Assembly (NCBI GenBank): GCA_965203355.1
Contig: OZ241889.1
Location: 1,792,001 to 1,856,000, forward strand
Direction of reading: 5' to 3'
DNA from: Candidatus Latescibacterota bacterium
GTDB taxonomy: Bacteria > Latescibacterota > UBA2968 > UBA8231
Length of the DNA stretch: 64,000 nucleotides
In this document: positions 23,456 to 42,050 of the stretch, piece after piece
Numbering within the stretch: position 1 is the first letter of the stretch
Layout: every line of letters begins with the position of its first letter
Position numbers and translations under genes: made by a program
Notes under the pieces: generated by a model
Seen by the model: the letters and a program-made list of their open reading frames with translations, nothing else
What the model was told of the DNA's origin: nothing
Database searches by the model: none

Positions 23456-23657
23456 AGGCTGTCGGAAAACGCTGAGGGCTGTCGTTTGTATGTAGGCAGG
23501 CTCCCCCGCTGATTCCCGCGCAAGTGGGAATGCCCACTTGATAGCGATCTCGGCAACAATATGGACCGCTGGATTCCTGCGCATGTCGTGGCACGGGGCG
23601 ACTTCTTATGCGGGAATGCCCCACCCAATGCGCCCTAGGGGTTTCATACAGTTTCTA
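23453..23657. mobile_element. MITE/REP-like non-autonomous element
   Basis: Imperfect terminal inverted repeats TAGAGGCTGTCGGAAAAC / GTTTCATACAGTTTCTA; internal ATTCCC-N8-GGGAAT palindrome (23512-23531) and a second degenerate copy (~23572-23620). Confidence 0.5.
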
Positions 23658-24656
23658 AGACGGTTTCTTTGGTTTTTGCAGGCCATGTACGCGCATGCGG
23701 GAACGCAGGCGCTCTGGCTTCATGCCCAACAAGTATGCTGCGCCTTGCATTCCATAGATCACCCAATTCGTGGTTTCGAGTGCTTCTATAAGCATTTTCT
23801 TTTCGATCTCGGCGATCTGGTCCACCTTCTCGGCGATCTGGTCCACCTTGGCTACAACTCCCTGTTCAAGCATCGTAGGTGCCTTGGCTAAGTCTTCAGT
23901 TGAGATCTGCACATCCTCCAATCGTATGGAATCACTTTGGCATATAATCACCGCCCGCTGAATCAGGTGCTCTAACTCGCGCACATTCCCCGGCCAATTA
24001 TAATCCGGTCTCTGCAAATGCATTAGTACCTCTTTGCTCAGGCGCGGCGCGGGTCGCTGTAGCTCTTGGGCAAACAGGCGCGCAAAGTGTTCTGCCAAGA
24101 CCGGTATATCCTCGCGGCGTTCCCGCAAGGGCGGAATCATTACCGGGAACACGTCCAAGCGGTAGAATAGATCTTTTCGGAATGTCCCCGCTTCAGCTGC
24201 TTGTCGTAGATCTCGGTTGGTCGCGGCAATTATGCGGACATCCACTTTGATAGATGCTTCTCCGCCGACTCGAAGCAGGCGGTGGTCTTCGAGAACGTGG
24301 AGTAGCGTCGTTTGTGCCTCTAAGGGCAAGTCGCCGATTTCATCGAAAAATAGGGTACCCTTATGCGCCTGCTCAAACCGGCCGATCCGCCGCCCTACGG
24401 CACTGGTAAAGGCCCCTTTTTCATGGCCAAACAGTTCGTCTTCGACTAGTCCGGTCGGTATAGCTCCGCAATTGACCATGACAAAGGGGTTTGCTTGACG
24501 CAGGCTAAGGGTGTGGACACGCTGGGCCAACATACCCTTGCCTACTCCAGTCTCGCCTAGTATTAGGACTGTCGTAGAAGTCTGTGCTACTAGTTGGAGT
24601 TGCTCCAAGACTTTGGTCATGGCTGGGCTTTGGCTGATTATATTCTGAGAGATCAT
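23655..24656 (-). CDS. Sigma54-dependent transcriptional activator (bEBP, AAA+ and HTH) lacking an N-terminal sensor domain
   Basis: GETGVGK Walker A, ELFGHEKGAFTSA, FFDEIG Walker B, RIIAATN, WPGNVREL, C-terminal Fis-type HTH; in-frame stop just upstream of ATG. Confidence 0.92.
   Translation of the reverse strand: MISQNIISQSPAMTKVLEQLQLVAQTSTTVLILGETGVGKGMLAQRVHTLSLRQANPFVMVNCGAIPTGLVEDELFGHEKGAFTSAVGRRIGRFEQAHKGTLFFDEIGDLPLEAQTTLLHVLEDHRLLRVGGEASIKVDVRIIAATNRDLRQAAEAGTFRKDLFYRLDVFPVMIPPLRERREDIPVLAEHFARLFAQELQRPAPRLSKEVLMHLQRPDYNWPGNVRELEHLIQRAVIICQSDSIRLEDVQISTEDLAKAPTMLEQGVVAKVDQIAEKVDQIAEIEKKMLIEALETTNWVIYGMQGAAYLLGMKPERLRSRMRVHGLQKPKKPS
23807..23848. repeat. 21-bp perfect tandem duplication inside the activator gene
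   Basis: TCTCGGCGATCTGGTCCACCT x2, giving KVDQIAE-KVDQIAE. Confidence 0.9.
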
Positions 24657-24770
24657 CTTAAAACTCGTTTAGGGCTAGGGCATGACTCGCTTGAGTAGAA
24701 TAGGAATCATAGCGAGATGGATAAATGCTTCGGAATCGTATAAATAGTTCAAAAGAAGTGTTATGTCAAT

Positions 24771-24830
24771 ATCGTATTTCAATACGATTATACCTTGTTT
24801 CAATACGATTATACCTTGTTTTAATACGAC
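24771..24830. promoter_or_regulatory. Putative upstream activator sequence: palindrome plus 21-bp tandem repeat
   Basis: Perfect palindrome ATCGTATT-TC-AATACGAT (24771-24788); unit TTTCAATACGATTATACCTTG at 24777 and 24798, partial third at 24819; extra ATCGTAT half-site at 24735. Confidence 0.7.
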
Positions 24831-24927
24831 TCCGATATCCATATTAAAGTAGAAAAAAATGGAAATTATCGAAGTAAAGTCATTATAAACAACAGGTTAT
24901 TAACAGAACTAATCCTAATATGACATA

Positions 24928-24944
24928 TAGGCACACTTTTTGCC
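24928..24944 (+). promoter_or_regulatory. Sigma54 -24/-12 promoter
   Basis: TAGGCACACTTTTTGCC: GG(24930-31)-N10-GC(24942-43), matches GGCAC-N5-TTGC consensus; adjacent divergent bEBP gene. Confidence 0.85.
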
Positions 24945-25022
24945 TTAGTGTTAAGTAAAGTGGGAACTGATAGGCGCAGTCCTAATTCCATTTATCCAAT
25001 CCGTAACACAGGAGGATTTATT

Positions 25023-25256
25023 ATGGAAAAGCTGCACAAACCCCAGCCCGCCTATGAGCCTAACAAGGTTCAGGCATACAATAATGAAAGGGGCCGTTGG
25101 ACGGATACTGGAGACGATATCCTCGATCTTCCCAATGGCTGCCGGAAATACATTCCGATGGAAATGTGTACGATCGTTTGGAACCCTAACAAAAACTGTG
25201 CTTCTATCGGAACGAAACGAGCGGATCCCGGAAGGGCCACTCGCACGGAATGCTAG
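25023..25256 (+). CDS. Putative RiPP precursor peptide, 77 aa, CLI_3235-like leader, 4 Cys
   Basis: Strong AGGAGG RBS (25010-15); first gene after the sigma54 promoter; MEKLHKPQPAYEPNKVQAY leader followed by core with C40, C49, C59, C77. Confidence 0.75.
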   Translation: MEKLHKPQPAYEPNKVQAYNNERGRWTDTGDDILDLPNGCRKYIPMEMCTIVWNPNKNCASIGTKRADPGRATRTEC

Positions 25257-25275
25257 TACTGCCGAGGACGCGACT

Positions 25276-25317
25276 CTTTCGTTGCTAAGAGGTTTTGACC
25301 TCTTGAGTTGGCGAAAG
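25276..25317 (+). terminator. Stem-loop after the precursor gene (attenuating or mRNA-stabilising)
   Basis: CTTTCGTTGCTAAGAGG-TTTTGA-CCTCTTGAGTTGGCGAAAG. Confidence 0.55.
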
Positions 25318-25427
25318 CCCTATTTTGTTCCCACGTTTGACCCAATGAGTAGCAATTCGGCGTATACCGAATTGCTACTCATTAGCGTTCTGACCATTTT
25401 GCATTGCTTGTGAAATTGGGGTCATAC

Positions 25428-26705
25428 ATGCAGCGATTTTTTAGTTTTCCTCTGAGTGGGCTAATAGCCGGTCTCGTGCTCATCGGCGAGGCCGGAAGTC
25501 AAGAGAACGTTTTATTTTGGCCAGCCAATCTGAAACACATTCCCAAACGATCCGTAGTCCAAGATGACCGTCGCCTGCACCTAAGGCTCGAAAAGGTTAT
25601 CCGCTTAAAGTTGGATGAACATACACCTGTCCTAGATAGTGTACTCAAAGGACAGTGGGCTCTAGGGGATAGTACCTTCTTTTTTATTTCCGGTGCGCTC
25701 TATGAATTCGACCAGACTGGTACCTATGTCCGTACCATCGGGCGGCGAGGTAAGGGACCTGGCGAATACCAAAATCCCACTCATGTCTCCGTAGATGCCG
25801 AGGGCCGTATTTACGTGGTAGCAGACCCCTTTCTCCTCCATGTATATGATAGAACAGGTCGTCATCTACATACTTATAAGGATCAGGCGGTCCGTCGTCT
25901 TTTCTTTGATACACAGGGAAACTTGGTGCAGTTGATAGAAGATTGGTTTGAAGCGCCGTCCGCTTGGAAAGATCGGTTCGCTCGGTTTATACCCGGGGTG
26001 AGGCATTCGCCTATATTTGTGGGGTTGACCAAGAGGAATCGGCAGGGGAAGCCTTTGTATCGGCTGGCTATCTCTACAGATGAGACCGTGGATGTCTTGT
26101 CCTATATGTTATCAAGGATTAGTCTCTGTTACAGTGAAACCAAGGATCGACTCTACTACGTGGAGCCGTGGGACTATAAAATCAAGGTGATTGATGCCCA
26201 TCGTGGACAGATCGTCGAACAATTTGGCCCCGAGCCGGAGTACTATCACAGCATGAGACGGGAAGTTGACTTTCCCATTTACGAGCCCCGTGATTCCGAC
26301 GAACTCTATGAGGCTAAGTTTAATGCATCGTTTACAGAGGAATTGCACCTGCTGGACGAGAAATATGTTCTGTATGTGTATCGCCCAGGCAAATCTGCCC
26401 TTGAGGGAGTTTTCGGGACGAAAAGGAAAGAGGTACGTGGGGGGGTTTGTCTGGCCTATGATATTAGCTCTGGAGACACCATCCGAGTTTTCCAGATGAT
26501 GAAGGAATCTCTTGACGACTGGCGATTGTATCATCCTGATTCCGAAGAAAGAGGGGGAATAAATACGGGTGGAACCAGAAGAGGAAGCTCTCCTACGAAT
26601 GTGATTGCTAGAGGGGAGTACTTGTACATTTATAAACCACCTCCAGAAAACATAATGGAGACTTCGAATGGCCGCGTCGAGGTTTTTACTGTCTCTGTTG
26701 AATGA
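25428..26705 (+). CDS. Exported 6-bladed (NHL-like) beta-propeller protein
   Basis: Signal peptide; FDQTGTYVRTIGRRGKGPGEYQNP, VDAEGRIYV, YDRTG motifs. Confidence 0.75.
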   Translation: MQRFFSFPLSGLIAGLVLIGEAGSQENVLFWPANLKHIPKRSVVQDDRRLHLRLEKVIRLKLDEHTPVLDSVLKGQWALGDSTFFFISGALYEFDQTGTYVRTIGRRGKGPGEYQNPTHVSVDAEGRIYVVADPFLLHVYDRTGRHLHTYKDQAVRRLFFDTQGNLVQLIEDWFEAPSAWKDRFARFIPGVRHSPIFVGLTKRNRQGKPLYRLAISTDETVDVLSYMLSRISLCYSETKDRLYYVEPWDYKIKVIDAHRGQIVEQFGPEPEYYHSMRREVDFPIYEPRDSDELYEAKFNASFTEELHLLDEKYVLYVYRPGKSALEGVFGTKRKEVRGGVCLAYDISSGDTIRVFQMMKESLDDWRLYHPDSEERGGINTGGTRRGSSPTNVIARGEYLYIYKPPPENIMETSNGRVEVFTVSVE

Positions 26706-26811
26706 GAAATATTCATACGAGTATAGTATGTTCACGAGAAGGGGCGAAGCACACAGCTTTCAAGTCGTGTAGGATTGCTATATAACTAAACTGTAACGAT
26801 AGAGTAACAAG

Positions 26812-27537
26812 ATGAAAGATTTTATAAAGATAAGTTCCCTAGTCGCCAATCTTTTGCTAGTGATCTTGCTGGGAATTTCTTTTGCTTGGATATATAAAGC
26901 AGAATATAGATTGTCCCACAGTTCGGGTCAATTGGCGACAGAACGCACTAGATTATATGAAGAATTTATAATTGCAACCATGATGGCAGACCGTCTTTTG
27001 GGATTGCCATTCCCTCGACTTGCTCTGGTCGATGTCTATAACAAGAATATATCAACTGATTTCTCACAAAAAGAGGGTGCCTTAATTCTCGTATTCGATC
27101 CTCAAACCTGTCAACCTTGCTTAATAGCTCAACTCAAGTTGTTGAATCATGTTTACAAACAACTTAAAAATCCAGATACATTTCCAGTCATTGCAATTGC
27201 CCCTCGCTATCACTCTCAGTTGATAAAACGATATGCTTTGAAATACGAATTGCAATATACAATAATAGCTGATAAAAAAGATCAAATCTTCAATGATAAC
27301 AATGAAGTACTTTACAAAGCAACTCCTGCCGTATATTTAGTTAATCAGAACAACACTATAATACGAAGCCATATTCCCGTATTTAGGAAACCTTATATTT
27401 CTGTTCTATTTTTTTATGAGGTACAAAATCTAATACCTCTTTCGGAGCCTATTTTTTCCTATATAGAACCTTTATTACTTATTGATGTTGTGAAAGGTGA
27501 TTTTGATCTTGAACCTATCGAGTACTTCCTCTATTGA
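26812..27537 (+). CDS. Membrane-anchored thioredoxin-fold (TlpA/AhpC-TSA-like) protein
   Basis: N-terminal TM; FDPQTCQPC CxxC; ATPAVYLVNQNNTI cis-Pro strand. Confidence 0.75.
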   Translation: MKDFIKISSLVANLLLVILLGISFAWIYKAEYRLSHSSGQLATERTRLYEEFIIATMMADRLLGLPFPRLALVDVYNKNISTDFSQKEGALILVFDPQTCQPCLIAQLKLLNHVYKQLKNPDTFPVIAIAPRYHSQLIKRYALKYELQYTIIADKKDQIFNDNNEVLYKATPAVYLVNQNNTIIRSHIPVFRKPYISVLFFYEVQNLIPLSEPIFSYIEPLLLIDVVKGDFDLEPIEYFLY

Positions 27538-27550
27538 TTTAGAGTCTCTA

Positions 27551-29293
27551 ATGATCTATATAAACAAAAAAACAGCGAGTCGTTTTTTAGCTTTTATCAG
27601 ACCTTATTGGTTTCTACAAAGTGTAGCCTTTATTCTTGCTATATTAAGTACGGCTAGTTTATTAGTCTCTCCTTATATAACAAAGATCATAATAGATGAA
27701 GTACTTCCCAATAGAGACTTATTTTTTCTCAATATAATGCTGGTCATCCTTGTGGGCAGTATTCTCTTTCAATTGGTCATCTCATTTTTTGGCGAATATA
27801 TTTATGCTTGGATTAGTAATAATATCACTTTGGACATGCAGCAGACTCTTTTTCGTCATATGCTGAATTTCTCTTTAACCTTTTATAATCAAAATAAGAA
27901 AGGAGATATTATATATAGGATCGAAGAAGATATAGAAAATATTCAAGATTTTCTTATTACGGGTATAGTCAGGTTTATACATGATGTATTGAAAATAACA
28001 TTTATCATAATCATGCTTTGCTGGCTAAGTTTTGAGTTTTTTTTATGTTCAATCAGTATTATTCCTTTATACATCATTAGTTTGATTTATTTTAGACCGA
28101 AAATAAAAAATATTACAGAGCGTGTCCGTGAAAAACAATCTGATATATTTTCCTTTTTAGTAGAGAGATTCCACAATATTCAACTAATTCAGACGTATAA
28201 CACATACACATACGAGAGTAAAAAATTACGCAAAAATCAGACTGAATTGGTAAACCTGAGTATGAAAAGCACTGTCTATTCCGCTGCAGCGAGTACCGTT
28301 GTGAATAGCATTGTGGGTTTAACGCCAGTGTTTTTCTTAGGCTGGGGCGGTTATCAAATCATAGAAGGAAATCTAACCCTGGGAACTCTAATCGCCTTCA
28401 TGCAATACCTGTCGTTTCTATTTTCTCCAATTAATGACCTAAACAGTCTTTATTTTCAAGCTGTACGAGCATCGGTGTCCATGAATCACTTGATGGAATT
28501 TCTGGAACTGCCTACTCAGCTCAATCTAAATGGTATTGGTGCCGGCTCTGCTTCTTTCTCTTTTGAACGGAAAATAGTGTTTAACGGTATCCATTTTTCC
28601 TACGATGGAGAATCAGTTTTACAAGACTTGAATATGGAACTTATAAAAGGAAAAAAATATGCTATAGTAGGTGCTAGTGGTTGTGGCAAGACTACTCTGG
28701 TCTATCTTTTATGTAGGTTCTATCAGCCTAGTAGGGGAGCTATCTTTATAGATGACACGAACCTTGAAAATATAAATCTTTTTGATATGAGAAAACACGT
28801 TGGATTGGTGACACAAAATAATCAAGTCTTCAACGATACAGTATGGGACAATATACAATATGGAAACATAGAAAGCACTCTCAGCGAAGTTGAGATAGCA
28901 GCTAAGACACTGGATTTGGATAATTATACAGATCGAGATAATCCTGTATTCACCAGATATATTGGTGAGCAAGGAGCACAATTATCTGGTGGTCAAAGAC
29001 AGCGAGTTGCTATTGCTCGAGCTGTACTAAAGGATATAGAAATTATGATCCTGGATGAAGCAACTTCGGCATTAGATTCCAAAGGTGAGCAGATAATTTT
29101 TGCCAAACTAAAAAAGCTGTATAAAGATAAAACCATAATCCTAATTAGCCACCGACTAGCCACGGTCCAAAATGCGGATGAAATCATTTGCTTAGAAAAA
29201 GGAAGAATTGTAGAACAGGGAAACCATGGCGATCTTCTGCGAAAAAAGAGATATTATTGGCAACTCTTTAAAGATCAACTGGAGGAACGTTGA
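27551..29293 (+). CDS. ABC exporter (TMD+NBD fusion, no C39 peptidase domain)
   Basis: TM helices; GASGCGKT Walker A, LSGGQRQR, ILDEATSALD, ISHRL. Confidence 0.93.
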   Translation: MIYINKKTASRFLAFIRPYWFLQSVAFILAILSTASLLVSPYITKIIIDEVLPNRDLFFLNIMLVILVGSILFQLVISFFGEYIYAWISNNITLDMQQTLFRHMLNFSLTFYNQNKKGDIIYRIEEDIENIQDFLITGIVRFIHDVLKITFIIIMLCWLSFEFFLCSISIIPLYIISLIYFRPKIKNITERVREKQSDIFSFLVERFHNIQLIQTYNTYTYESKKLRKNQTELVNLSMKSTVYSAAASTVVNSIVGLTPVFFLGWGGYQIIEGNLTLGTLIAFMQYLSFLFSPINDLNSLYFQAVRASVSMNHLMEFLELPTQLNLNGIGAGSASFSFERKIVFNGIHFSYDGESVLQDLNMELIKGKKYAIVGASGCGKTTLVYLLCRFYQPSRGAIFIDDTNLENINLFDMRKHVGLVTQNNQVFNDTVWDNIQYGNIESTLSEVEIAAKTLDLDNYTDRDNPVFTRYIGEQGAQLSGGQRQRVAIARAVLKDIEIMILDEATSALDSKGEQIIFAKLKKLYKDKTIILISHRLATVQNADEIICLEKGRIVEQGNHGDLLRKKRYYWQLFKDQLEER

Positions 29294-29436
29294 GGGCGAA
29301 TATTCTGCACACCCGACCAAGGCCAAGGTCGCCCCTCATTGATGGCGTACCGCTTGCGGATATTCAACTGCGTGAAGTGAGAGCGCCCATCGGCTTGGTC
29401 TCTCAGCAAGTGCATCTGTTCGGGCCCTGGAGTTGA
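29294..29436 (+). pseudogene. Frameshifted relic of a second ABC transporter ATPase domain
   Basis: Reads RIFCTPDQGQ-(frameshift)-LIDGVPLADIQLREVRAPIGLVSQQVHLF, i.e. the NBD segment up to the Q-loop, in GC-richer codons. Confidence 0.7.
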
Positions 29437-29440
29437 CCGT

Positions 29441-29908
29441 ATGAAGCAACGGCTGTTTATCACCGGCCTTGTGCTCTGGGCCGGGGTGCTGGCGGGAAGC
29501 GTGTACGCCCTCTGGTCTTATGCAGATCGCTTGCTGTCCGGTGTGCCGCTGGGCGGCTTTGAAGATGCGGCTGTTCACCGACTCAATCCGCTGGAGGCTA
29601 AGCGGAGTTTCGACCGTGGCGCGGCCGTTTTTGTCGATGTGCGATCGGCTTTTGCTTACGAGGCCGGGCACATCCTCGGTGCCTTGCACCTACCTTCCCA
29701 TGTTTCTACGGCTCACTTACGCGAAGTGCTGGCGTCTTATCCGGCGGATATCCGAGTTATCACCTACTGTTCGGGCGGCGGTTGCCAGAGCAGTCGTACG
29801 CTGGCGAAGCGACTCGTCGAAGAGTCCGTCCGCGATGAAGTCTATGTCCTGACCGGCGGCTGGCCCGCTTGGCAAGCGGCCGGGGTGGGCGAGGAGGCTG
29901 GCTCGTGA
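29441..29908 (+). CDS. Membrane-anchored rhodanese-like domain protein
   Basis: N-terminal TM; FVDVRS, YEAGHILGA, ITYCSGGGC, LTGGWPAW. Confidence 0.85.
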   Translation: MKQRLFITGLVLWAGVLAGSVYALWSYADRLLSGVPLGGFEDAAVHRLNPLEAKRSFDRGAAVFVDVRSAFAYEAGHILGALHLPSHVSTAHLREVLASYPADIRVITYCSGGGCQSSRTLAKRLVEESVRDEVYVLTGGWPAWQAAGVGEEAGS

Positions 29909-31851: not shown

Positions 31852-31910
31852 GGCTTCTGGGCTATTTATCTGGGGAACGGATGATGCCCATTTGGGGTAG
31901 GGCACTGGGC

Positions 31911-34020: not shown

Positions 34021-34105
34021 CGGCCTTCGCCTCTGCAGACGTTTACTGATCTAAAACGCTTATCAAGTGGGTTAGAAAGTCTACGAGATACTGAAAGCCC
34101 TAGCT

Positions 34106-35287
34106 ATGTGGTCAATCGCCAGATTTCTACTCCCGATTCTTATACTCTTGCTCGTCGCAGGGGTATTTGTACTATCACAGGACGTTTTTCATTTTGTCTC
34201 AGAAGGCGTCAGTGAGGATATGGGGAGAGCCGACGTCCAAGAAACAGTAGCCTTCAGGCCACTTGAAACCCCCGTAGAGGTGATACGATTAAAAAAACAA
34301 TCGCTAGTGGAGAGCATTTCGACCAATGGTCGGACTAAAGCCTTACTCAAAACAAAAATCACATCTCAAGTGTCAGGAAGCGTTACCGAATTGAGGGTGG
34401 GAGAAGGCGAATTTGTTAAAAAAGATTCGGTGCTCTTAGAAATCGAAGACGAATCCTTCAGAATTGCTTATCTGCAAGCAAAAGACAGGTTGAATAACCT
34501 CCTCAATGAATACGCTCTCATGATATTGCTGAACAGGCAAACAGTATCAGACCGAATCGATATAAGCACCAGTACTAACATAGATACATCAAATATAAAC
34601 GATAGAGAATCAGCGGCTCTGCTGTCGGTACATTCTCGTAAAGAGCGGATTGCCAGCATGATAGGGTTGACGAAAGCTAGGCTGGATCTGAGAAAGGCAG
34701 AGTTGGATCTTGAAAATACCATGGTTCGTGCCCCCTTTGACGGCTTTGTCTCCGGCGTAGCAACATCACAGGGCAGTATAGTTCACCAGACAGATCAACT
34801 GATGTGGTTGGTTTCTCTAGATAGTTTGGTCGTTGAGGTAGGCATCTTGGAAACCGAGCTACGGTTGATTCGCAAAGGTACCGAAGCCGAGATAGAATTA
34901 GCCGCTTTTCCGGGCGAACAGATCAAGGGGACAGTCAGGGCGATAAGTCCAATTATAGAAGAAAAGAGTGGTACTTGTAATATCCAGGTAGAGATTGCCA
35001 ACCCAACCCGGGAAATCCGCCCCGGTATGTTTGCTCGTGTAACTGTTAGCCACGGAGAATTTCGTAGTCGCCTTCTGATTCCCCGAGACGCTCTTTTACT
35101 TCGAGATGATAGAAAGGTCGCATTCGTATATGAACAGGGAGTAGCACGTTGGCGCTATATCAAGACTGGTCTAGAGAACGATCTCTTTATCGAAGTCACT
35201 GAGGGCTTGAGCGAAGGAGAAGATTTGATCGTGTCTGGGCACTTCAATCTTGCTCACGAAGCCAAAGTCTTGTTGGTGGAGAAATGA
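34106..35287 (+). CDS. RND efflux periplasmic adaptor (MFP)
   Basis: N-terminal TM; SQVSGSV...EGEFVKK lipoyl halves; VRAPFDG; RPGMFARV; GLSEGE. Confidence 0.92.
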   Translation: MWSIARFLLPILILLLVAGVFVLSQDVFHFVSEGVSEDMGRADVQETVAFRPLETPVEVIRLKKQSLVESISTNGRTKALLKTKITSQVSGSVTELRVGEGEFVKKDSVLLEIEDESFRIAYLQAKDRLNNLLNEYALMILLNRQTVSDRIDISTSTNIDTSNINDRESAALLSVHSRKERIASMIGLTKARLDLRKAELDLENTMVRAPFDGFVSGVATSQGSIVHQTDQLMWLVSLDSLVVEVGILETELRLIRKGTEAEIELAAFPGEQIKGTVRAISPIIEEKSGTCNIQVEIANPTREIRPGMFARVTVSHGEFRSRLLIPRDALLLRDDRKVAFVYEQGVARWRYIKTGLENDLFIEVTEGLSEGEDLIVSGHFNLAHEAKVLLVEK

Positions 35288-35333
35288 AGACGGAAAGTCT
35301 TTTTCCGCTTTATTGAATGAACGAATAAGCGGG

Positions 35334-38300
35334 ATGCATATAACTGAAGTTGCAGTTCAGCGGCCCGTAGCCACTACGGTGTTCTTTATAGCAATGGTCA
35401 TGCTGGGAGTGTATTCTTTCCATCGGCTGAGCGTCGATTTCTTGCCCAGTATCAGCGTACCCAACCTACTAGTCAGAACCGAATGTCCTGGACTAAACGC
35501 ACAAGATATAGAGAAAAATGTCACCGAATGGATCGAGTCTGCGTTGAGTACAGTACAGGATGTGAATCGCATAGAATCGGTTTCGCGTGATGGCCTCTCG
35601 CTCATCCACGTCGATTTTGGCTGGGGCAGTAATATGAACATAGCGTTTATCAATGTGCGAAACAGACTGGATAGAATACAGGAGAACTTACCTGAATTCG
35701 TCGAGCGCTCAGTCATATTGAGCTTTGATCCATCCTCAACACCTATTATGACTTTGGTGGTTACGGGTGATCGCGTAGAAAATCCCACAACGGCCAAAAG
35801 CTACGAGAATGCCTTAGCAGAGCTAAAAGAGGTTTCTGAAACAGTCATTAAACGCCGTCTGGAACAATTGGATGGAGTGGCTTATGCTCTGGTATCGGGG
35901 GGGTTAGAGCGAGAAATTCAGGTGATTTTAGATTCGGAGAAAATGCTAACTTACCAGATCGGTTTCGCTGAGGTGGAGCAGGCCTTGAAACAGTTCAATG
36001 TGCAGTCGCTAGGCGGTACCATCCGCGACAGGCACTACCAATTCCCTCTCCGCATTGAAGCCTCATATAATAAGGTGGACGAGATCTACAAGACGCCTAT
36101 CCGGTCCACGCTACGGGAACAGACTATTCGCTTGCAAGACATTGCCCGTATAGAGGATTCCTACAAAAAACGGACTGGTTATGTTCGCTTGAACGGCAAA
36201 GAAGTGATAACTTTGTTTCTATTTAAGGAAGCTGGTGCTAATACGGTTAAAACCTCAAAAAAAATATATGAAGATCTTTATAGATTGGCCGAAGAGTACC
36301 CCGAATTTCAGGTCACAGTGGCTTTTGATCAGGCGGAGTTCATCCAAGAATCCATAGTTAACGTATTACATGCTTTATACTTGGGGAGTATAGTCACATT
36401 TTTTGTGCTTTTCTTTTTTCTACAAGACTTGCGGAGTCTTGTCATTGTGGGGCTTGCTATCCCGATCTCCATTGTGACCACCTTGGTTTTCATGTACTTC
36501 TTGTCCATCAATCTCAATATAATCTCTTTGGGTGGCTTGGCATTGGGCATCGGTATATTAGTAGACAATTCCATCGTAGTGCTAGAGAATATCTATCGCT
36601 ACAGAGAAATAGGGTATCCTACTCGTCGAGCTGCGGTTGAAGGAGCCAAAGAGGTAAGTATGGCGATTACGGCCTCGACCCTTACCACCTTATCTGTCTT
36701 TATACCGTTAGTCTATGTTAAGGGTTTAGCAGGAGAACTTTTTTATAATCAATCTATTGTAATTGCGATCTCTCTAGCCGTTTCGCTCCTCGTATCTCTT
36801 ACTTTTCTACCTGTGCTAGTCATACAGATCTCCCGTTCATCTGCCAATCCTTTTACCTATTGGTCTATGCGATCTTATCTTCCCTTGCCCCTTCGTTTGC
36901 AAGGAAGGAGCTTGCCAAGTAAAGTCGGTACACTAATAGGATGGGTGCTAGAAAATGCGGTTTATACTGCAATCTATGGACTGTACAAGGGTGCTCTGAT
37001 CTACTTTTTTCGTTTGGTAGAGGTACTTATCGCGTCCTTTCAACGGCTTTTTGCCGCCTTTTTCAGAACCTATGAACTCATCCTGTCGACTGTCTTACAG
37101 TACAAGGCGGTTTCGATTTTCACCGTCCTATTGGTGTTCTATGCTAGCCTGGAGATCATGCAACAATTAGATAAAGAATTGATGCCGCTGGTAGATAGAA
37201 AGAAACTAGTTGTGAGTGCGGAATTACCCATGGGAACAAATCTGCACAACACATCTCTGAAAGTTGCACATCTGGAGAGCAAACTGCTACAACAGCAAAA
37301 AATAAAGGCGGTTCTATCTTCGGTGGGGATTACCAGCGATGTTTTAGATCGCCGGTACCATCCAAGTTTGAACAAAGCGATCTTGGATATAGAAATAGTA
37401 CAAGAGGCTAATATCTTTGAAGTTTCCCATTCCCTGAAGGAGATATTCGCGGATTTCACCGATATAAAGTTGGAGATCAAGAGGCGGGAATCTGTTTTTG
37501 AACAACTATTCCAACAGCGACCGGACGTATTTGACATTGAATTGGTTGGGCCGGAATTGGAAGTTCTTGATTCTTTAAGTCGGCAAATCGTAGATTTTAT
37601 GAGACAATCAGATGGTTTTGAAAATGCGGTTTCTAATTTAAAAATAGCTGAACGAGAATACCGGCTAGAGATAAAACGGAGCGTCTTGATCCGCTATGGC
37701 ATAGAGATCTCGGAACTGGTCGCATTCCTCAAGCAGCGAATTAAGGGCAGTATACCTACCCAATTCATTGACTTCTCCGATAAGATCGACATACGACTTT
37801 TGGCCGACGACCGCACGGAGATAGAGCTATATGACTTGCTAAAGCTACAGTTTCCTGTTCAAAAAATCGACGAGACCTCCTATGTGCCCCTAACCGATCT
37901 GGTGACTCTGGAGCCCCAAGCTGGATTTGAGGCGATCCACCGCAGAGATCAAAATCGAACCGTCCTCATTACAGCTATCCTTAATGGACTCGACTTCTCT
38001 GAGGCGACAGCCCACCTTGAAAACTATTTGCGTACTATGCAGATACCCAGCGGATATTGGTTTGAGATCGGTACATTCAGAGGAAATACAAGAGCCGAAT
38101 TTGAAAATCTACTGCTCATCCTAGTGATTTCAATAGCTCTTATCTATTTCATTCTTTCAGCTCAGTTTGAGTCTATCAGAGTGCCTTTAATCATACTCAT
38201 GGCGATCCCGTTGTCGCTCGTTGGAGTTGTGTTCACTTTGTGGGTGAGCGGCAATACCCTGAATGTCATGTCGCTATTGGGTGGAATCGTGCTGGTGGGT

Positions 38301-38618
38301 ATTGTGGTAAACGATGCGATTGTAAAAGTGGACTTTATACATCGCCACTACGTGGAGAGCGGTGATGTGAAGGCCGCTATTGTAGAGGCTGGACGCAAAC
38401 GATTTCGGCCTATCTGGATGACTACAGCAACCACGGTGTGTGGGTTGCTACCCATGGCTTTGGCCATGGGTAGCGGAGACGAACTGAGACGTCCCCTTGC
38501 TTGGACCATCATAGGAGGACTGTCCGCAGCAACTTTTTTGACCTTGATCGTAATCCCCACTATTTATGCGGGCATGATAGGACCGGGGCGTCAACAGAGC
38601 AAAGTGAACAGTAACTAA
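35334..38618 (+). CDS. RND efflux permease (AcrB/MdtB-like)
   Basis: RPVAT start, GILVDNSIVVLENI, GIVVNDAIV, RFRPIWMT. Confidence 0.93.
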   Translation: MHITEVAVQRPVATTVFFIAMVMLGVYSFHRLSVDFLPSISVPNLLVRTECPGLNAQDIEKNVTEWIESALSTVQDVNRIESVSRDGLSLIHVDFGWGSNMNIAFINVRNRLDRIQENLPEFVERSVILSFDPSSTPIMTLVVTGDRVENPTTAKSYENALAELKEVSETVIKRRLEQLDGVAYALVSGGLEREIQVILDSEKMLTYQIGFAEVEQALKQFNVQSLGGTIRDRHYQFPLRIEASYNKVDEIYKTPIRSTLREQTIRLQDIARIEDSYKKRTGYVRLNGKEVITLFLFKEAGANTVKTSKKIYEDLYRLAEEYPEFQVTVAFDQAEFIQESIVNVLHALYLGSIVTFFVLFFFLQDLRSLVIVGLAIPISIVTTLVFMYFLSINLNIISLGGLALGIGILVDNSIVVLENIYRYREIGYPTRRAAVEGAKEVSMAITASTLTTLSVFIPLVYVKGLAGELFYNQSIVIAISLAVSLLVSLTFLPVLVIQISRSSANPFTYWSMRSYLPLPLRLQGRSLPSKVGTLIGWVLENAVYTAIYGLYKGALIYFFRLVEVLIASFQRLFAAFFRTYELILSTVLQYKAVSIFTVLLVFYASLEIMQQLDKELMPLVDRKKLVVSAELPMGTNLHNTSLKVAHLESKLLQQQKIKAVLSSVGITSDVLDRRYHPSLNKAILDIEIVQEANIFEVSHSLKEIFADFTDIKLEIKRRESVFEQLFQQRPDVFDIELVGPELEVLDSLSRQIVDFMRQSDGFENAVSNLKIAEREYRLEIKRSVLIRYGIEISELVAFLKQRIKGSIPTQFIDFSDKIDIRLLADDRTEIELYDLLKLQFPVQKIDETSYVPLTDLVTLEPQAGFEAIHRRDQNRTVLITAILNGLDFSEATAHLENYLRTMQIPSGYWFEIGTFRGNTRAEFENLLLILVISIALIYFILSAQFESIRVPLIILMAIPLSLVGVVFTLWVSGNTLNVMSLLGGIVLVGIVVNDAIVKVDFIHRHYVESGDVKAAIVEAGRKRFRPIWMTTATTVCGLLPMALAMGSGDELRRPLAWTIIGGLSAATFLTLIVIPTIYAGMIGPGRQQSKVNSN

Positions 38619-38630
38619 AGATGCTGAAGT

Positions 38631-41600
38631 ATGATAAACCAGCTATTGGTACGCCGGGTAGCAGTCGGAACTTTTTTTGGTGCTTTCTTAGTTTTGGGCT
38701 TGGTCTGTTTCTCGCTGATCCCGGTCGAACTATCCCCCCGCATTGAGCTACCGCAACTCACGGTCTCTGTATCCTGGCCTCGAACTTCGGCCCTCACTAT
38801 AGAAGCCCAGATTACTGCTCCTTTAGAAGCTGAGTTACAAGGCTTGCAAGGAGTAGTTGATATCTATTCAACGACAGGCGAGGGATGGTGCTGGCTGACC
38901 GCAGAGTTAGCCGAAGATGCGGATACGCAATTGGCCGAGTTGAGATTCAGAGAAAAGATCTATCACTTGCGTAAACAATGGCCCAAGGAAGTCTCTTGGC
39001 CCACTATTCAGCGTACTGTCCCCCAAGAGCTGCGCCAGCTAGAAGACTTTATGAGTTTTGTGCTAGTTGGAGATCGTTCTGTGGCTGAGTTGCGAAAATT
39101 TGCCGAAGACGAGCTGTATGCCTCTCTCTCATCGGTCCGTGGTGTAAAGACAGTAGAAATACGGGGCGGGGAAGAACAATTTGTCGAAATCGAAATAGAT
39201 CCGCAGGCCGTTGCGAGTTTGGCAATATCGAGGTCTATCCTCGGAAGTCCAAAATGGAGTAGCTATCAGCGACACTTGCTAGGTGGCGTATGGGAACACG
39301 GTGTCTTGCGACGTCTGCGGCTGGATGCAGGTTTCAGTGAATTTGCAGAGATACGAAAAATCCCCATTACCCAAACCTTGAATGGCCGTATTGTTCGGCT
39401 GGAAGATATAGCAACCGTCAATCTCCGCGCTAGGGAGCCTCAGCGTATTGTACGCGTGAACGGGAGAAACGTGGTTGCGCTATCTCTGTCTAAAGAGTAT
39501 GGAGTAGATTTACTCGAAACGGCTCAGCAGGTAGATAGGATGGTGGCACTACTCAAAAAAGGTATGCCCAAGGAAATAGAGATTGTCAAGGATCACGATA
39601 GTAGTCGGGATCTTCAAGAGCAAGTTCAGCATATAACCAAACGTATGTTATTTGCCATTTTATTTATTGTCTTGGTTTTGATGGTGGTTTTCAAAAGTAT
39701 CCAAGCTGTCTTTATCATTCTGAGCTCTATTGCCTTCTCGATTCTAGGAGCAACAACCTTATTTTATCTCTTAGGCTATTCGCTGAATATACTTATCTTG
39801 GCCGGTTTTACGGTGGGCTTTGGGATTTTGGTGGATAATGCCGTGGTGGTGTACGATCATATCCATCGCCGCATAACGCAGCTTGACTTAGAGAATGTAA
39901 ATTGTCCTGTGGTTTTAAAAGAGGCTACCATAGGCGCAGTACGAGAGATGGTACAACCACTTATAGCATCTAACCTAACCACCTTGGGAGCCTTTTTGCC
40001 AGTCTTCTTTCTCTCTTCAGAGCTACAACTGTACTTCAAATCTTTTGTCGTCTCGCTAGGTTCAACCCTATGCGTTTCTCTATTCATTTCTTTTACACTC
40101 ATTCCCACTTTTTCGTATCGTGTACGGGCTTACCGAGGCAGAGAATTCATCTGGAAATTTTCAAGGCCTCACGAGCAGAAGGATAGCGGGCAAGGATGTC
40201 GAGAGACTTCGTATGGCTTTAGCCATCTATTAAAGCGAATATATGGTGGTTTGCTTTCATTCTGTACGAATCATAAAAAATGGGTCTTCGCTGCACTGTT
40301 ATGGATGATAGGAGTACCTCTCTGGTTGTTACCCACAGATATAAGTATTCAGACGGAACCTATAATCCGAAAAGAAAAAAACCTTATAAAAACTCGTGCA
40401 GCCTACAATGCCTTTATCGAAAAAAATCAGCATAAAGTAGAATCAGATACATTACCCTGGGTTACAGAAATAATAGAAAAAGCAACCTTTCTTTTATCTG
40501 CTGGATTACCGTTTTTGCAGGATCCATACAATGCCATATGGAATAATAGATTCTTTGTCTTTGCCAAGCCTTGGCTGATTAAGTTGATGGGTGGATCCAC
40601 ATATCTCTTTTTCAATAAAGTGCATGTTGGCGACTGGGAAGGTTACGATTACCCATTCACTGAAGAAACTTCAATTATTATTGACATAGAGATGCCCAAT
40701 AGCATATACATTAAAAGAATAGATCAAATATGTCTAGATTTTGAAAGAAAAATCCTACCATATGAAGAGTTTATAGAAAAAATAAGTACCCAGATGGACA
40801 AGGAGAGAGCACATATTCGAATTGATTTTAAGGAAAAATACAAGAATGATCCTGTTTCTATCCAACTGTACAGATACTTAGTTTCATACGGGAGAAACAT
40901 TGGAGGAGTTACTCTTAAGATAATGGGGAAAGGGCTACCATTTAAGGATATTTTAGAAGGTAATTATACGAACTCATCTATTAAAGTGAAGGGATTTAAC
41001 TTTGACAGAGTTCACGCCATTGCCAAGGAGATAGCACAAAGGCTTGCAGGTTATAAAAGAGTGAAGAATATAGATAGTGACCGCGCCACTCGATGGGAGA
41101 CTAACCAGTACGAGGTAGTCGCTCAGGTGGAACGCGATCCACTGGTGGCTTATAGAATAAGCCATGGGCGAGTCGTGCGAGAAATACAGGCTAGGATTGG
41201 CAACACATCCTCTAGTACAGTTCAAGTTGATGGAAGGTTTATACCTGCCTTCGTGATATTTTCGGGTGCTGATCGCATGACTGTCAGGGAGCTGAATCGA
41301 GTATTGATGCAGAGTGAGGAGCAAGCGCAGACAACTCGGATTGGATATCTCACCCGCATTGACAAGCAAAGAGTTTTACCCAAAATAAGACGAGAAAATC
41401 AGAGTTATGTCCGGTTGGTCAATTACTCCTTCTTAGGCCCTATTTCCTATGGAGATAATTTGCAAAAAAAGATCATAGAAGAAACGGTTCTTCCTTACGG
41501 GTATAGTCTAATACCAGATAAGCCTTGGTACAGCGATCTCTACAAGAGCGAAAAGAAAGAGTTAATGTGGGCTATTTTGTTAGGAGTGGTACTGGTTTGG

Positions 41601-42050
41601 ATGATTACAGCCGCTCTATTCGAGTCGTGGACCAAGCCATTTTTAGTACTGCTGGCTCTACCTTTGGCTATGATAGGGGCGTCTTGTGGCTTTTATCTTT
41701 TTGATGCCTATTTCAATAAAGGTGGATATGCTGCGATTCTCTTTTTAATAGGTATTGGAGTGAATAATTCGATTCTATTAGTAGATCATATTAGTAACTC
41801 CTTGAAATCGCAGACGGGAAGTAGGAAGGAAATTATTGTCAATGCTGCTTTTCGGAGAATTCGTCCCATTTTCATCACTACTGCTACTACTTTTGTTGGC
41901 CTGTTCCCTCTGTTATTATACGAGGATCGCTTAAGCCTTTGGTATTCTCTGTCTATAGGTGCTTGTGGTGGCTTGATATCTTCCTTTTTATTGACTCTGA
42001 TAATTGTACCGTTTTGTTTTCTTCTCGGAGAAAAAGCCTCTGCACCCTAA
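38631..42050 (+). CDS. RND efflux permease (second subunit, MdtC-like)
   Basis: GILVDNAVVVYDHI, GIGVNNSILL, RIRPIFITT. Confidence 0.9.
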   Translation: MINQLLVRRVAVGTFFGAFLVLGLVCFSLIPVELSPRIELPQLTVSVSWPRTSALTIEAQITAPLEAELQGLQGVVDIYSTTGEGWCWLTAELAEDADTQLAELRFREKIYHLRKQWPKEVSWPTIQRTVPQELRQLEDFMSFVLVGDRSVAELRKFAEDELYASLSSVRGVKTVEIRGGEEQFVEIEIDPQAVASLAISRSILGSPKWSSYQRHLLGGVWEHGVLRRLRLDAGFSEFAEIRKIPITQTLNGRIVRLEDIATVNLRAREPQRIVRVNGRNVVALSLSKEYGVDLLETAQQVDRMVALLKKGMPKEIEIVKDHDSSRDLQEQVQHITKRMLFAILFIVLVLMVVFKSIQAVFIILSSIAFSILGATTLFYLLGYSLNILILAGFTVGFGILVDNAVVVYDHIHRRITQLDLENVNCPVVLKEATIGAVREMVQPLIASNLTTLGAFLPVFFLSSELQLYFKSFVVSLGSTLCVSLFISFTLIPTFSYRVRAYRGREFIWKFSRPHEQKDSGQGCRETSYGFSHLLKRIYGGLLSFCTNHKKWVFAALLWMIGVPLWLLPTDISIQTEPIIRKEKNLIKTRAAYNAFIEKNQHKVESDTLPWVTEIIEKATFLLSAGLPFLQDPYNAIWNNRFFVFAKPWLIKLMGGSTYLFFNKVHVGDWEGYDYPFTEETSIIIDIEMPNSIYIKRIDQICLDFERKILPYEEFIEKISTQMDKERAHIRIDFKEKYKNDPVSIQLYRYLVSYGRNIGGVTLKIMGKGLPFKDILEGNYTNSSIKVKGFNFDRVHAIAKEIAQRLAGYKRVKNIDSDRATRWETNQYEVVAQVERDPLVAYRISHGRVVREIQARIGNTSSSTVQVDGRFIPAFVIFSGADRMTVRELNRVLMQSEEQAQTTRIGYLTRIDKQRVLPKIRRENQSYVRLVNYSFLGPISYGDNLQKKIIEETVLPYGYSLIPDKPWYSDLYKSEKKELMWAILLGVVLVWMITAALFESWTKPFLVLLALPLAMIGASCGFYLFDAYFNKGGYAAILFLIGIGVNNSILLVDHISNSLKSQTGSRKEIIVNAAFRRIRPIFITTATTFVGLFPLLLYEDRLSLWYSLSIGACGGLISSFLLTLIIVPFCFLLGEKASAP

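Follow-up and report, generated by a model that had tools for sequence, protein, structure and literature searches.

Among the closest described relatives of the locus studied here are the CLI_3235-class peptide maturation systems of Firmicutes (TIGR04065 precursor, TIGR04066, TIGR04068 CcpM and TIGR04069), for example the SacP23 cluster of Paenibacillus polymyxa (PMC10731318). In these systems a small Cys-rich precursor with a short leader is accompanied by a DUF1611-like maturation protein, a carrier-protein-like partner, a subtilisin-like protease and an ABC exporter, and their chemistry is likewise unsolved. Maturation of quinohemoprotein amine dehydrogenase (QhpC/D/E/F) combines a small Cys-rich peptide with a leader, a cytoplasmic S8 leader peptidase (QhpE) that removes the leader before ABC export, and a periplasmic beta subunit (PMC7876137). 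The papain-like carrier-protein-dependent ligases BtrH, AsbE, CtaG and CcbD work in non-ribosomal pathways with a cognate carrier protein encoded beside them, and BtrH and AsbE take carrier-protein-bound donors and free acceptors (PMC12865890). AziU3 and AziU2 are the two subunits of the aziridine synthase of azinomycin B biosynthesis (PDB 7WUW, 8GS1; PMC12559475; PMC12865890), and a partner sulfotransferase reportedly supplies their sulfated amine substrate (Kurosawa et al., 2022; see also PMC12559475). Finally, acylated RiPPs include goadvionins, lipolanthines and selidamides, and ACP-dependent N-acylation is known for goadvionins (PMC8784127).

In this work we analyzed a 64-kb stretch of DNA (64,000 nucleotides, hereafter the window) from a Candidatus Latescibacterota bacterium (contig OZ241889.1, positions 1,792,001 to 1,856,000). 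A sequence-only reading had proposed that it contains a sigma54-controlled cluster producing an ACP-dependent acylated peptide. We found a real, conserved gene cluster that most likely tailors and exports a small ribosomally made peptide using an unusual enzyme set: a protease fused to a P-loop enzyme, a carrier protein, and a pair of proteins related to an aziridine-forming enzyme. Literature searches revealed no paper describing this combination.

Gene content and conservation of the cluster

All 13 genes named in the sequence-only reading are present at 23655–42050 with the domains it had assigned to them, so that its observation is confirmed in full. The features are listed in Table 1, where L numbers denote loci related to the cluster and P numbers denote homologous proteins.

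Table 1. Features of the cluster and its upstream neighbor, with supporting evidence (coordinates are those of the window).
Position	Strand	Feature	Evidence
21404–23455		AMP-binding gene, long-chain fatty-acid-CoA-ligase-like	Lies just upstream of the cluster, in the high-GC flank
23655–24656	-	Sigma54-dependent activator (bEBP), PspF-like, with only the AAA+ domain, lid and HTH and no sensory domain	Pfam Sigma54_activat 223.7 bits, AAA_lid_14 and HTH_8; GAFTSA loop in the translation; a 39%-identical bEBP heads the syntenic locus L002
24769–24831		Three tandem 21-bp direct repeats, candidate activator binding site (UAS; binding inferred)	Repeat search: 3 copies at 100/86/76% identity, spacing 21
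24930–24943	+	Sigma54-type -24/-12 core, GGCAC-N5-TTGC	Exact motif match; similar intergenic cores precede the operons in L004, L011 and L013
25023–25256	+	Putative precursor peptide, 77 aa; leader roughly residues 1–19 (MEKLHKPQ...KVQAY; cleavage site inferred), then a variable core with 4 Cys	Leader HMM E 1.5e-5; homologue P0122 is 68% identical, with a near-identical leader and all 4 Cys kept
25344–25383	+	Perfect 17-bp stem-loop between the precursor gene and the next gene, candidate attenuator or mRNA stabiliser (function inferred)	Folding of 25250–25430: -64 kcal/mol, z -5.1; 0 of 200 shuffles fold as well
25428–26705	+	Predicted exported beta-propeller-family protein	Partial DUF5128 match, 41.9 bits (cut-off 22.9), residues 98–154 only; N-terminal hydrophobic segment; homologues in L001 (two), L002, L003, L094–L096 and L100
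26812–27537	+	Predicted membrane-anchored thioredoxin-like protein with CQPC	AhpC-TSA/Redoxin match, ResA-like; CQPC invariant in 5 of 5 homologues; N-terminal anchor
27551–29293 (start may be 27497)	+	ABC exporter, half-transporter type (MsbA/HlyB-like), without a peptidase (C39) domain	ABC_membrane 153 bits, ABC_tran 113 bits; an ABC exporter lies beside nearly all fusion copies
29441–29908	+	Predicted membrane-anchored single-domain rhodanese with a conserved C-x4-C loop	Rhodanese 64.8 bits; anchor and Cys pair in 4 of 4 homologues; stop overlaps the fusion gene's start (GTGA)
29905–31851	+	Predicted cytoplasmic fusion of an S8 protease (QhpE-like) with DUF1611_N and a DUF1611/TIGR04066-like P-loop domain	Peptidase_S8 92.9, DUF1611 45.5, DUF1611_N 23.4 bits; QhpE 151 and TIGR04066 108 bits; PDB 2g0t at E 6e-5 for the C-terminal half
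31999–32262	+	Acyl/peptidyl carrier protein (ACP)	PP-binding 48.9 bits
32321–32986	+	AziU2-family predicted beta-sandwich protein, 221 aa	No Pfam or NCBIfam family; model pLDDT 89; Foldseek top hits are AziU2 chains (TM 0.73–0.82); family profile hits AziU2 at E 1e-51
33019–34020	+	AziU3/BtrH-type predicted papain-like protein with a helical C-domain	BtrH_N 40.3 bits (cut-off 29.7), DUF4872 36.8 bits (cut-off 28); model pLDDT 91; Foldseek: AziU3 TM 0.75–0.77, CtaG 0.58–0.65, CcbD 0.60–0.65; profile hits AziU3 at E 2e-6
34106–35287	+	Membrane-fusion (periplasmic adaptor) protein (MFP)	HlyD_D23 103 bits; syntenic in L001 and L002
35331–38618 (start may be 35250)	+	RND transporter 1	ACR_tran 723 bits; 51–53% identical and syntenic in L001 and L002
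38631–42050	+	RND transporter 2	ACR_tran 432 bits; 39% identical and syntenic in L001 and L002

The bEBP with its AAA+ sigma54-interaction domain and the GG/GC promoter motif are those expected for a sigma54-dependent operon, although the promoter rests on a motif match only. The core sequence has 3 exact matches in 64 kb against 0.75 expected, and 5 of 100 shuffles reach 3, so that on its own this evidence is weak. However, the match upstream of the peptide gene is the only intergenic one among the three (the one at 30502 encodes the protease motif G-T-S-F-A), and it lies about 80 nt before the peptide ATG and about 100 nt after the tandem repeats.

To reveal whether the gene order is more than a chance association, we compared it with related loci. 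The whole run from the propeller to the second RND pump is syntenic in L001, while in L002 it is syntenic except that a Kelch protein takes the place of the 221-aa protein; L003, L013, L081, L082 and L084 carry parts of it. The level of identity to L001 varies by module, from 25–44% for propeller/Trx/ABC to 55–74% for rhodanese to BtrH. The window itself shows a sharp GC mosaic, with values of 0.35 for Trx/ABC, about 0.6 for rhodanese to BtrH and about 0.45 for MFP/RND. This is not an artefact of one assembly, since an identical contig from another study bridges 29073–29835, and it shows that the modules had different recent histories. A close relative in a sponge metagenome (about 96–97% identical) has a contig that joins 29478 to 32007, and it therefore has no rhodanese or fusion gene at that place.

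The putative precursor peptide, the fusion enzyme and the carrier protein

The 77-aa peptide carries a leader motif, KLxKP...VxAY, and is very probably the substrate of the cluster. A leader HMM built only from 11 peptides of other loci picked it as the single significant hit among 1,210 segments of the window, starting at the predicted Met. It should be noted that these peptides were first selected with a motif partly derived from the window peptide, so that the test is not fully independent. Sixteen precursor candidates sit beside fusion genes in Latescibacterota, Rosettibacter and Firmicutes, with hypervariable and mostly Cys-rich cores.

The S8-DUF1611 fusion belongs to a large, undescribed family of more than 441 proteins, of which the best 120 all carry both S8 and DUF1611. 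The family spans Latescibacterota, KSB1, Ignavibacteriota (Rosettibacter), Myxococcota (Minicystis) and Firmicutes. In 12 sequences with 55–88% identity the S8 triad (D19, H58 and S202) and the P-loop (GxxxxGK, G415–K422) are invariant. The S8 domain is of a leader-peptidase type; its best family match is QhpE, at 151 bits against a cut-off of 165.

The ACP is a true carrier protein by sequence: the phosphopantetheine-site Ser is present in 14 of 14 ACPs. It lies next to the fusion in 23 of 31 sources and, in a census of every fusion copy in five complete chromosomes, beside 14 of 15 copies, with up to about 8 copies in one chromosome. The core of the family consists of the precursor, the fusion and the ACP, although only 3 of the 15 census copies have a leader-HMM hit at E<1e-3 and three more are weak (E 0.004–0.03). 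Radical SAM/SPASM peptide maturases were found in 8 of 31 related loci, which ties the family to peptide modification.

The AziU2/AziU3-like pair

The sequence-only reading had described the two genes downstream of the ACP as a jelly-roll protein and a BtrH-like protein. Structure comparison and profile searches revealed that they are homologues of AziU2 and AziU3, respectively, and form one two-subunit unit, although sequence identity is only 18–22%. A natural fusion of an AziU2-like protein to BtrH_N also exists (P0126). AziU3 shares the papain-like fold of CtaG and CcbD. In 17 sequences of the BtrH-like protein C11, C18, H122 and D140 are invariant, and in the model helix 1 starts at residue 18; however, this is based on alignment alone, and AziU3 also aligns with Cys, His and Asp at Cys18, His122 and Asp140, so that the triad does not separate transacylase from cyclase. 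Transfer of an acyl group from the ACP is therefore only one of at least two chemistries that this pair could perform. The BtrH_B type found beside most other fusion copies lacks the Cys and Asp.

Proposed function and alternative explanations

The interpretation given in the sequence-only reading is partly supported. The cluster is a coherent, conserved peptide-maturation and export cluster with a small peptide as the very probable substrate, an S8 domain of leader-peptidase type and a genuine carrier protein; the BtrH-like protein keeps Cys, His and Asp in the alignment, and no description of the combination was found. On the other hand, its link to CLI_3235 systems is architectural only, and its proposal of a lipopeptide has no specific support; no fatty-acid or polyketide synthase gene and no acyl-activating gene is conserved in the cluster. 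Its proposals of disulfide formation by the CxxC protein and of export by the ABC and RND transporters remain inference.

We suggest, with moderate confidence, that this is a sigma54-controlled cluster that matures and exports a RiPP-type peptide. In this view, the PspF-like activator bound at the 21-bp repeats would fire the sigma54 promoter, and the precursor would be recognized through its leader. In the cytoplasm the fusion enzyme and the ACP would act on it: the S8 domain would cut off the leader, as QhpE does before ABC export, while the P-loop domain would either load the ACP or pass an ACP-borne group to the peptide. In this subfamily the AziU2-like/AziU3-like heterodimer would add a further step, most likely the transfer of a carrier-protein-bound unit to an amine of the peptide, as BtrH, CtaG and CcbD do, or alternatively an AziU-type intramolecular ring closure. 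Acylation from the ACP is plausible but unproven, and no enzyme that would make or activate an acyl or aminoacyl group is conserved in the cluster. The ABC exporter would then move the product to the periplasm, where the membrane-anchored CQPC protein and the rhodanese would handle its four Cys, and the MFP and two RND pumps would expel it or protect the producer. The product is probably a bacteriocin-like or signalling peptide. Of these elements, the domain content, the synteny, the homology of the leader, the conservation of the carrier Ser and the homology to AziU2/AziU3 were shown by our analysis, while expression, leader recognition and cleavage, loading of the ACP, the catalytic activities, activator binding and export are inferred from sequence and genomic context; a search for RNA runs covering the stretch returned none, which says nothing either way.

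Three other explanations were considered, and each of them seems unlikely. The version proposed in the sequence-only reading, a ribosomal lipopeptide whose fatty acyl chain is transferred by the BtrH-like protein from the ACP to the core after leader removal by the S8 domain, is in agreement with the position of a true ACP next to a BtrH_N/DUF4872 protein with conserved Cys, His and Asp, with the donors used by BtrH and AsbE (PMC12865890), with the goadvionin precedent (PMC8784127) and with the AMP-binding gene just upstream. However, no fatty-acid or polyketide synthase genes are present. The AMP-binding gene has no homologue at E 1e-5 in L001–L017, the only loci searched for it (the sequence of L002 starts at its bEBP and does not include its upstream side), and it is only 27% identical to the AMP-binding gene 4 kb past the L082 cluster. 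In addition, the closest structural and sequence relative of the BtrH-like protein is AziU3, which is not an acyltransferase, and most family members have the fusion and ACP without a Cys-bearing BtrH-like protein.

It is even less likely that the peptide is not a secreted natural product but a cross-linked small subunit or protein-derived cofactor carrier that is exported and assembled with the periplasmic propeller into an enzyme or binding complex. This view is suggested by the QhpE match, by the analogous composition of the qhp system (PMC7876137), by the radical SAM enzyme of L002, which scores 228 bits on the QhpD model, and by the recurrence of a propeller in the window's subfamily. But the propeller matches no Qhp model and accompanies only 5 of 15 census copies, and the hypervariable cores and multiple copies per genome are unlike a conserved enzyme subunit. 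Alternatively, the run could be a mosaic of independent modules brought together by recombination (peptide/propeller/Trx/ABC, an ACP-based small-molecule pathway and an efflux pump), in which the ACP, DUF1611 and AziU-like enzymes make a non-ribosomal metabolite unrelated to the peptide. The three GC classes with breaks at gene boundaries, the module-dependent identity to L001, the sponge-metagenome junction and the non-ribosomal pathways in which AziU3/AziU2, BtrH and CtaG act speak in its favor. It is opposed by the physical fusion of the protease to the DUF1611 domain in more than 120 proteins, by the leader-bearing peptides and peptide-modifying radical SAM enzymes beside the fusion/ACP pair across phyla, by the gene order kept in L001 and L002 despite low identity, and by genes that overlap or abut, for example the rhodanese stop and the fusion start.

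A more far-reaching hypothesis, which we regard as possible but doubtful, is that the family grafts thiotemplate chemistry onto a ribosomal peptide without any NRPS, PKS or GNAT. The DUF1611 P-loop enzyme fused to the leader peptidase would charge or use a dedicated carrier protein, and in this subfamily the AziU3/AziU2-type heterodimer would install either a carrier-protein-delivered non-proteinogenic unit or a strained ring by an SN2-type closure on the peptide. This would be a new RiPP class with a new maturase logic, multi-copy and with hypervariable cores, in uncultured Latescibacterota and relatives.

If our reading is right, the cluster gives a first function, in a peptide context, to two orphan enzyme families, the DUF1611/TIGR04066-type P-loop proteins and the AziU2/AziU3-type pair, and it would show a carrier protein working in a ribosomal peptide pathway that has no assembly-line enzymes. 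Given the size of the family, one reconstitution would annotate hundreds of clusters, including the related CLI_3235-class loci of clostridia and Paenibacillus. Rosettibacter primus and Minicystis rosea, which are named strains, offer a way into experiments.

Comparison with known systems

The acylated RiPPs may share with this cluster a ribosomal peptide joined to a carrier-protein- or CoA-borne unit. However, goadvionins and selidamides use GNAT acyltransferases (the lipolanthine acylation step is not yet characterized), and goadvionins and lipolanthines carry polyketide-derived acyl units from dedicated cluster machinery; none of that is present here. With the qhp system the cluster shares a QhpE-like S8 protease, a Cys-rich peptide with a leader and an ABC exporter to the periplasm, but the QhpE score is below the cut-off, no other Qhp model was hit, and no QhpA haem subunit, QhpB, QhpD or QhpG gene was found.

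With BtrH, AsbE, CtaG and CcbD the window protein shares the BtrH_N and helical C-domain architecture, both above the Pfam cut-offs, and a carrier protein encoded beside it. Those enzymes act alone, without an AziU2-like partner, and the structural match to them (TM about 0.6) is weaker than to AziU3. As in the azinomycin aziridine synthase, genes for both subunit families are neighbors, but here they sit next to an ACP and a ribosomal precursor, with no azinomycin-type pathway. No sulfotransferase domain was found among the cluster genes; the rhodanese is a sulfurtransferase fold and is predicted to be extracytoplasmic.

Finally, the cluster fails the cut-offs of all the CLI_3235-class models. 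The precursor gave no NCBIfam hit, and hence none to TIGR04065, even at E<=10, and neither did 7 related precursors including the Firmicutes ones. The DUF1611 half scores 108.2 bits (E 4e-31, model positions 2–359 of 361) against the TIGR04066 cut-off of 200, while the relatives L010, L016 and L017 score 59–83 bits. TIGR04069 is not among the hits of the ACP at E<=0.01 or of three related ACPs at E<=0.001. No Radical_SAM domain was found in any gene of 23655–42050, and the SPASM enzymes of related loci score below the CcpM (TIGR04068) cut-off. In the window, moreover, the protease is fused to the DUF1611-like domain, the host has a Gram-negative type envelope, and the AziU2/AziU3-like pair, the rhodanese, the Trx-like protein, the propeller, MFP/RND and the inferred sigma54 control are added. 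Thus, the cluster represents a sister family of the CLI_3235-class systems and not a member of them.

Organization of the gene cluster

All elements listed by the sequence-only reading were revealed in the region, and its observation is therefore confirmed. A gene for a sigma54 activator is followed, across a divergent intergenic region, by twelve co-directional genes encoding a peptide, a propeller-family protein, a CQPC thioredoxin-like protein, an ABC exporter, a rhodanese, an S8-DUF1611 fusion, an ACP, a 221-aa protein with no family, a BtrH_N/DUF4872 protein, an MFP, and two RND pumps.

Coordinates of features in the window and in related loci
Feature	Source	Position	Strand	Description
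Whole cluster	window	23655-42050		activator gene and twelve co-directional genes
Sigma54 activator (bEBP)	window		-	333 aa; Sigma54_activat, AAA_lid_14 and HTH_8 domains, no sensory domain; GAFTSA loop in the translation
Tandem repeats	window	24769-24831		three 21-bp copies
Sigma54-type core	window	24930-24943		GGCAC-N5-TTGC, about 100 nt after the repeats
Peptide ORF	window	25023-25256		77 aa, 4 Cys; good AGGAGG upstream
Hairpin	window	25344-25383		perfect 17-bp stem, follows the peptide gene
Sigma54-like pattern inside fusion genes	window	30502-30515		encodes G-T-S-F-A of the protease active site
Same pattern	L001; L081; L007; L084	6439; 3073; 3563; 703		inside the fusion genes
Lower-GC parts of the cluster	window	24700-29300 and 34000-42050		compared with 29300-34000 and the flanks
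Region bridged by an identical contig of a different study	window	29073-29835		spans the 29.3-kb GC break
Insertion in the sponge-metagenome relative	window	29422/29423		436 nt
Junction in the sponge-metagenome relative	window	29478/32007		joined directly in one contig
AMP-binding enzyme	window	21404-23455	+	long-chain-fatty-acid-CoA-ligase-like; convergent with the bEBP, in the high-GC flank
LarA-type lactate racemase homologue and TolB-like propeller protein	window	44255-45529 and 47784-48956		downstream of the cluster, apparently unrelated to it
CAAX/Rce1-like intramembrane protease (a bacteriocin-immunity type) and TPR proteins, one with a C39-like peptidase domain	L004; L006	8491-9231 and 7779-8471; 7805-9865		between the precursor and the fusion gene in other subfamilies

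The sigma54-type core occurs three times in the window against 0.75 expected, and 5 of 100 shuffled sequences reach three, so the motif alone is weak. Its weight comes from its position beside the activator and before the first gene. A stricter pattern (TGGCAC-N5-TTGCW with one mismatch) did not find this site. It should be noted that the core pattern GGCACCAGCTTTGC recurs inside the fusion genes of the window and of four related loci (L001, L007, L081 and L084) because it encodes the catalytic G-T-S-F-A. The match in the window is not a promoter, and the pattern represents a trap for promoter scans. The hairpin following the peptide gene had a folding z-score of -5.1, and none of 200 shuffled sequences folded as well.

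Synteny and mosaic structure

To reveal whether these genes form a unit, we compared their composition and their order in related loci (designated L and a number), which carry homologues of the fusion gene. The composition is that of a mosaic: GC content is 0.35 for the Trx and ABC genes, 0.55-0.62 from rhodanese to BtrH, and 0.43-0.46 for the MFP and RND genes, against about 0.6 in the flanks. Thus, three sharply bounded GC classes (0.35, 0.45 and 0.6) are present inside one operon. The mosaic is much weaker in L001 and L002 and moderate in L003, which suggests recent replacement of the precursor and export modules from lower-GC donors, while the enzyme core stayed.

Nevertheless, synteny shows that the cluster is a unit. 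L001 (Candidatus Latescibacterota; fusion 74% identical) contains every gene from the propeller to the second RND pump in the same order. L002 has the same order, with a Kelch protein in place of the 221-aa protein and with a bEBP and a radical SAM gene at the head, while L003, L013, L081, L082, L084 and L088 hold parts of the cluster. The level of identity to L001 differs by module: 25-44% for the propeller, Trx and ABC, 55-74% from rhodanese to BtrH, and 39-53% for the MFP and RND proteins.

Comparison with public contigs gave two results. An identical contig from a different study bridges the 29.3-kb GC break. A relative in a sponge metagenome, about 96-97% identical, keeps three blocks (bEBP-peptide-propeller, ACP to BtrH, and MFP-RND), but one of its contigs joins 29478 directly to 32007, and it therefore lacks the rhodanese and fusion genes at that place. 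It also carries an insertion just before this junction, and nothing at 90% identity or more covers the ABC gene. The module borders thus appear to be real recombination points, with modules exchanged between lineages, although this relative could represent either a decayed cluster or one with exchanged modules. A separate metagenome scan gave no relative above 70% identity.

Distribution of the fusion gene family

The fusion protein has more than 441 relatives among the 8,000 candidates scored, and the best 120 all carry both S8 and DUF1611. In contigs representing one genome per species, 17 of 80 loci retained from 556 tblastn-confirmed stretches match beyond the S8 domain. They come from Latescibacterota, KSB1, Rosettibacter primus, Minicystis rosea, one contig labelled Thermoplasmatota, and Firmicutes. 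Asp19, His58, Ser202 and the P-loop G415-K422 are invariant in 12 sequences, and the C-terminal half matches the DUF1611 structure 2G0T at E 6e-5. An apparent in-frame TGA in three fusion genes proved to be the true stop codon, and there is no selenocysteine.

The neighborhood of the fusion gene was counted in 30 loci plus the window and, to obtain an unbiased count, around every fusion copy in five complete chromosomes (15 copies, from one to about eight per genome). Of the eight sources without an ACP in the first set, four end with the fusion gene. The carrier Ser is present in 14 of 14 ACPs, including those of Firmicutes.

Features found near the fusion gene in the two counts
Feature	Sources (of 31)	Copies in complete chromosomes (of 15)
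ACP	23	14
BtrH-like protein	11	10-11
221-aa protein	5	
Radical SAM enzyme	8	
Trx-like protein		7
Propeller		5

The chromosome behind L006 (G003) carries about eight fusion genes and that behind L004 (G002) about five; one copy has an internal TAG and one is split into two pieces. Thus, this is a multi-copy family with some decaying members. The contig of 4.17 Mb that contains the window also holds, outside it, a second fusion gene (P0027, 73% identical) and a second gene of the window's AziU3/BtrH type, BtrH_A (P0313, 54% identical), so this genome probably has a second cluster of the same type.

The candidate precursor peptide

The peptide matches no Pfam or NCBIfam model. It has a single homologue among 5.8 billion clusters (P0122, 68% identical), in which residues 2-26 are nearly identical and all four Cys are kept. 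Weak tblastn hits led us to small ORFs beside other fusion genes that share M-x-K-L-x-K-P...V-x-[AL]-Y followed by unrelated, mostly Cys-rich cores. A profile of 11 such leaders, from which the window's own was excluded, scores the window ORF at E 1.5e-5. This is the only significant hit among 1,210 stop-to-stop segments (the next best is 0.28), and it begins exactly at the predicted Met. The training set was found with a motif partly derived from the window peptide, so that this test is not fully independent, whereas the location of each training peptide beside a fusion gene is independent. A second round added weaker candidates in L094, L096 and L100 (E 0.004-0.03). Within the window's subfamily the sequence after the leader is also alike, [AG]Y-x-x-[EN]-x-G-x-W, in the window, P0122, L001, L003 and L094. 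A search of sequencing runs listed no RNA data set containing this stretch, and expression of the peptide is thus only inferred.

Proteins related to AziU2 and AziU3

The 221-aa protein has 548 relatives. Some of them are stand-alone proteins, while others are modules inside glycoside hydrolases and Ig-domain proteins. One relative, P0126 (482 aa, from a 29-kb metagenome contig), is a natural fusion of the AziU2-like domain (residues 2-140) to a BtrH_N domain (229-351). The predicted structure of the 221-aa protein is confident (pLDDT 89) and matches the AziU2 chains of 7WUW/8GS1 at TM 0.73-0.82, far ahead of carbohydrate-binding modules. The family profile hits AziU2 at E 1e-51.

The BtrH_N/DUF4872 protein (51 relatives) was also modelled (pLDDT 91). 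It is closest to AziU3 (TM 0.75-0.77), then to CtaG (0.58-0.65) and CcbD (0.60-0.65, including CcbD bound to its carrier domain), and its profile finds AziU3 at E 2e-6. In the window protein C11, C18, H122 and D140 are invariant over 17 sequences, and helix 1 starts at residue 18, so C18 is the likelier nucleophile. A second BtrH-like type (BtrH_B), common beside other fusion copies, lacks the Cys and Asp. Complex prediction for the BtrH_A and AziU2-like families with the ACP as partner returned a score of 0.00 in a run without controls, which is not evidence either way.

Predicted localization of the proteins

The propeller, Trx-like protein, rhodanese and MFP have N-terminal hydrophobic segments, while the fusion, ACP, AziU2-like and AziU3-like proteins have none. 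CQPC is invariant in five of five Trx-like homologues, and a C-x4-C loop is conserved in four of four rhodaneses.

Proposed mechanism

The interpretation given in the sequence-only reading, a sigma54-controlled RiPP system in which the peptide is acylated from the ACP, is partly supported. The analysis establishes the domain identities, the synteny, the leader homology, the carrier Ser, and the AziU2/AziU3 homology. The remaining steps are inferred, namely sigma54 activation, leader removal by the S8 domain in the cytoplasm before ABC export (on the QhpE/QhpF precedent; PMC7876137), use of the ACP by the P-loop domain, a carrier-protein-dependent transfer or an AziU-type closure by the putative heterodimer, periplasmic thiol chemistry on the four Cys, and expulsion or self-protection by the MFP and RND proteins.

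As to the step attributed to the heterodimer, AziU3 aligns with Cys, His and Asp at Cys18, His122 and Asp140, so this set of residues does not decide between the two chemistries. No enzyme that would activate the cargo of the ACP is conserved in the cluster. The AMP-binding enzyme upstream of the cluster was considered as an ACP loader and is a possible but unsupported source of an acyl group: it has no homologue in L001-L017, the only loci searched for it, and is only 27% identical to the AMP-binding gene near L082. The downstream AMP-binding, carrier and Asn-synthase genes of L082 belong to a separate operon. That a DUF1611 protein (DgcN) is an N-acetyltransferase is supported in this analysis only by the name of an NCBIfam model hit weakly (E 9e-4), and a literature search for DgcN returned only unrelated words. 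The hypervariable cores, the many copies per genome, and the CAAX-protease-type gene in L004 fit a bacteriocin-like or signalling product.

Comparison with known systems

In the open PMC papers and bioRxiv preprints searched, which excluded subscription journals and supplements, we found no description of the fusion/ACP system or of an AziU-like pair beside a ribosomal precursor. The cluster is assigned, on sequence and context evidence only, to the RiPP kind, and it belongs to a large uncharacterised family with an unusual enzyme logic, whose chemistry is unknown.

The sequence-only reading had compared the precursor, the DUF1611-like protein and the ACP with those of CLI_3235 systems. The SacP23 cluster of P. 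polymyxa has a CLI_3235 precursor, TIGR04068, TIGR04066, TIGR04069 and a separate subtilase (PMC10731318), and its architecture is clearly related. Even so, the window fails all four models. The fusion-type loci of Firmicutes and Rosettibacter fail them as well: TIGR04066 scores 59-83 bits, there is no TIGR04069 hit, and their radical SAM enzymes best match other SPASM maturases, all below their cut-offs. We therefore treat the fusion/ACP systems as a sister family of the CLI_3235 class.
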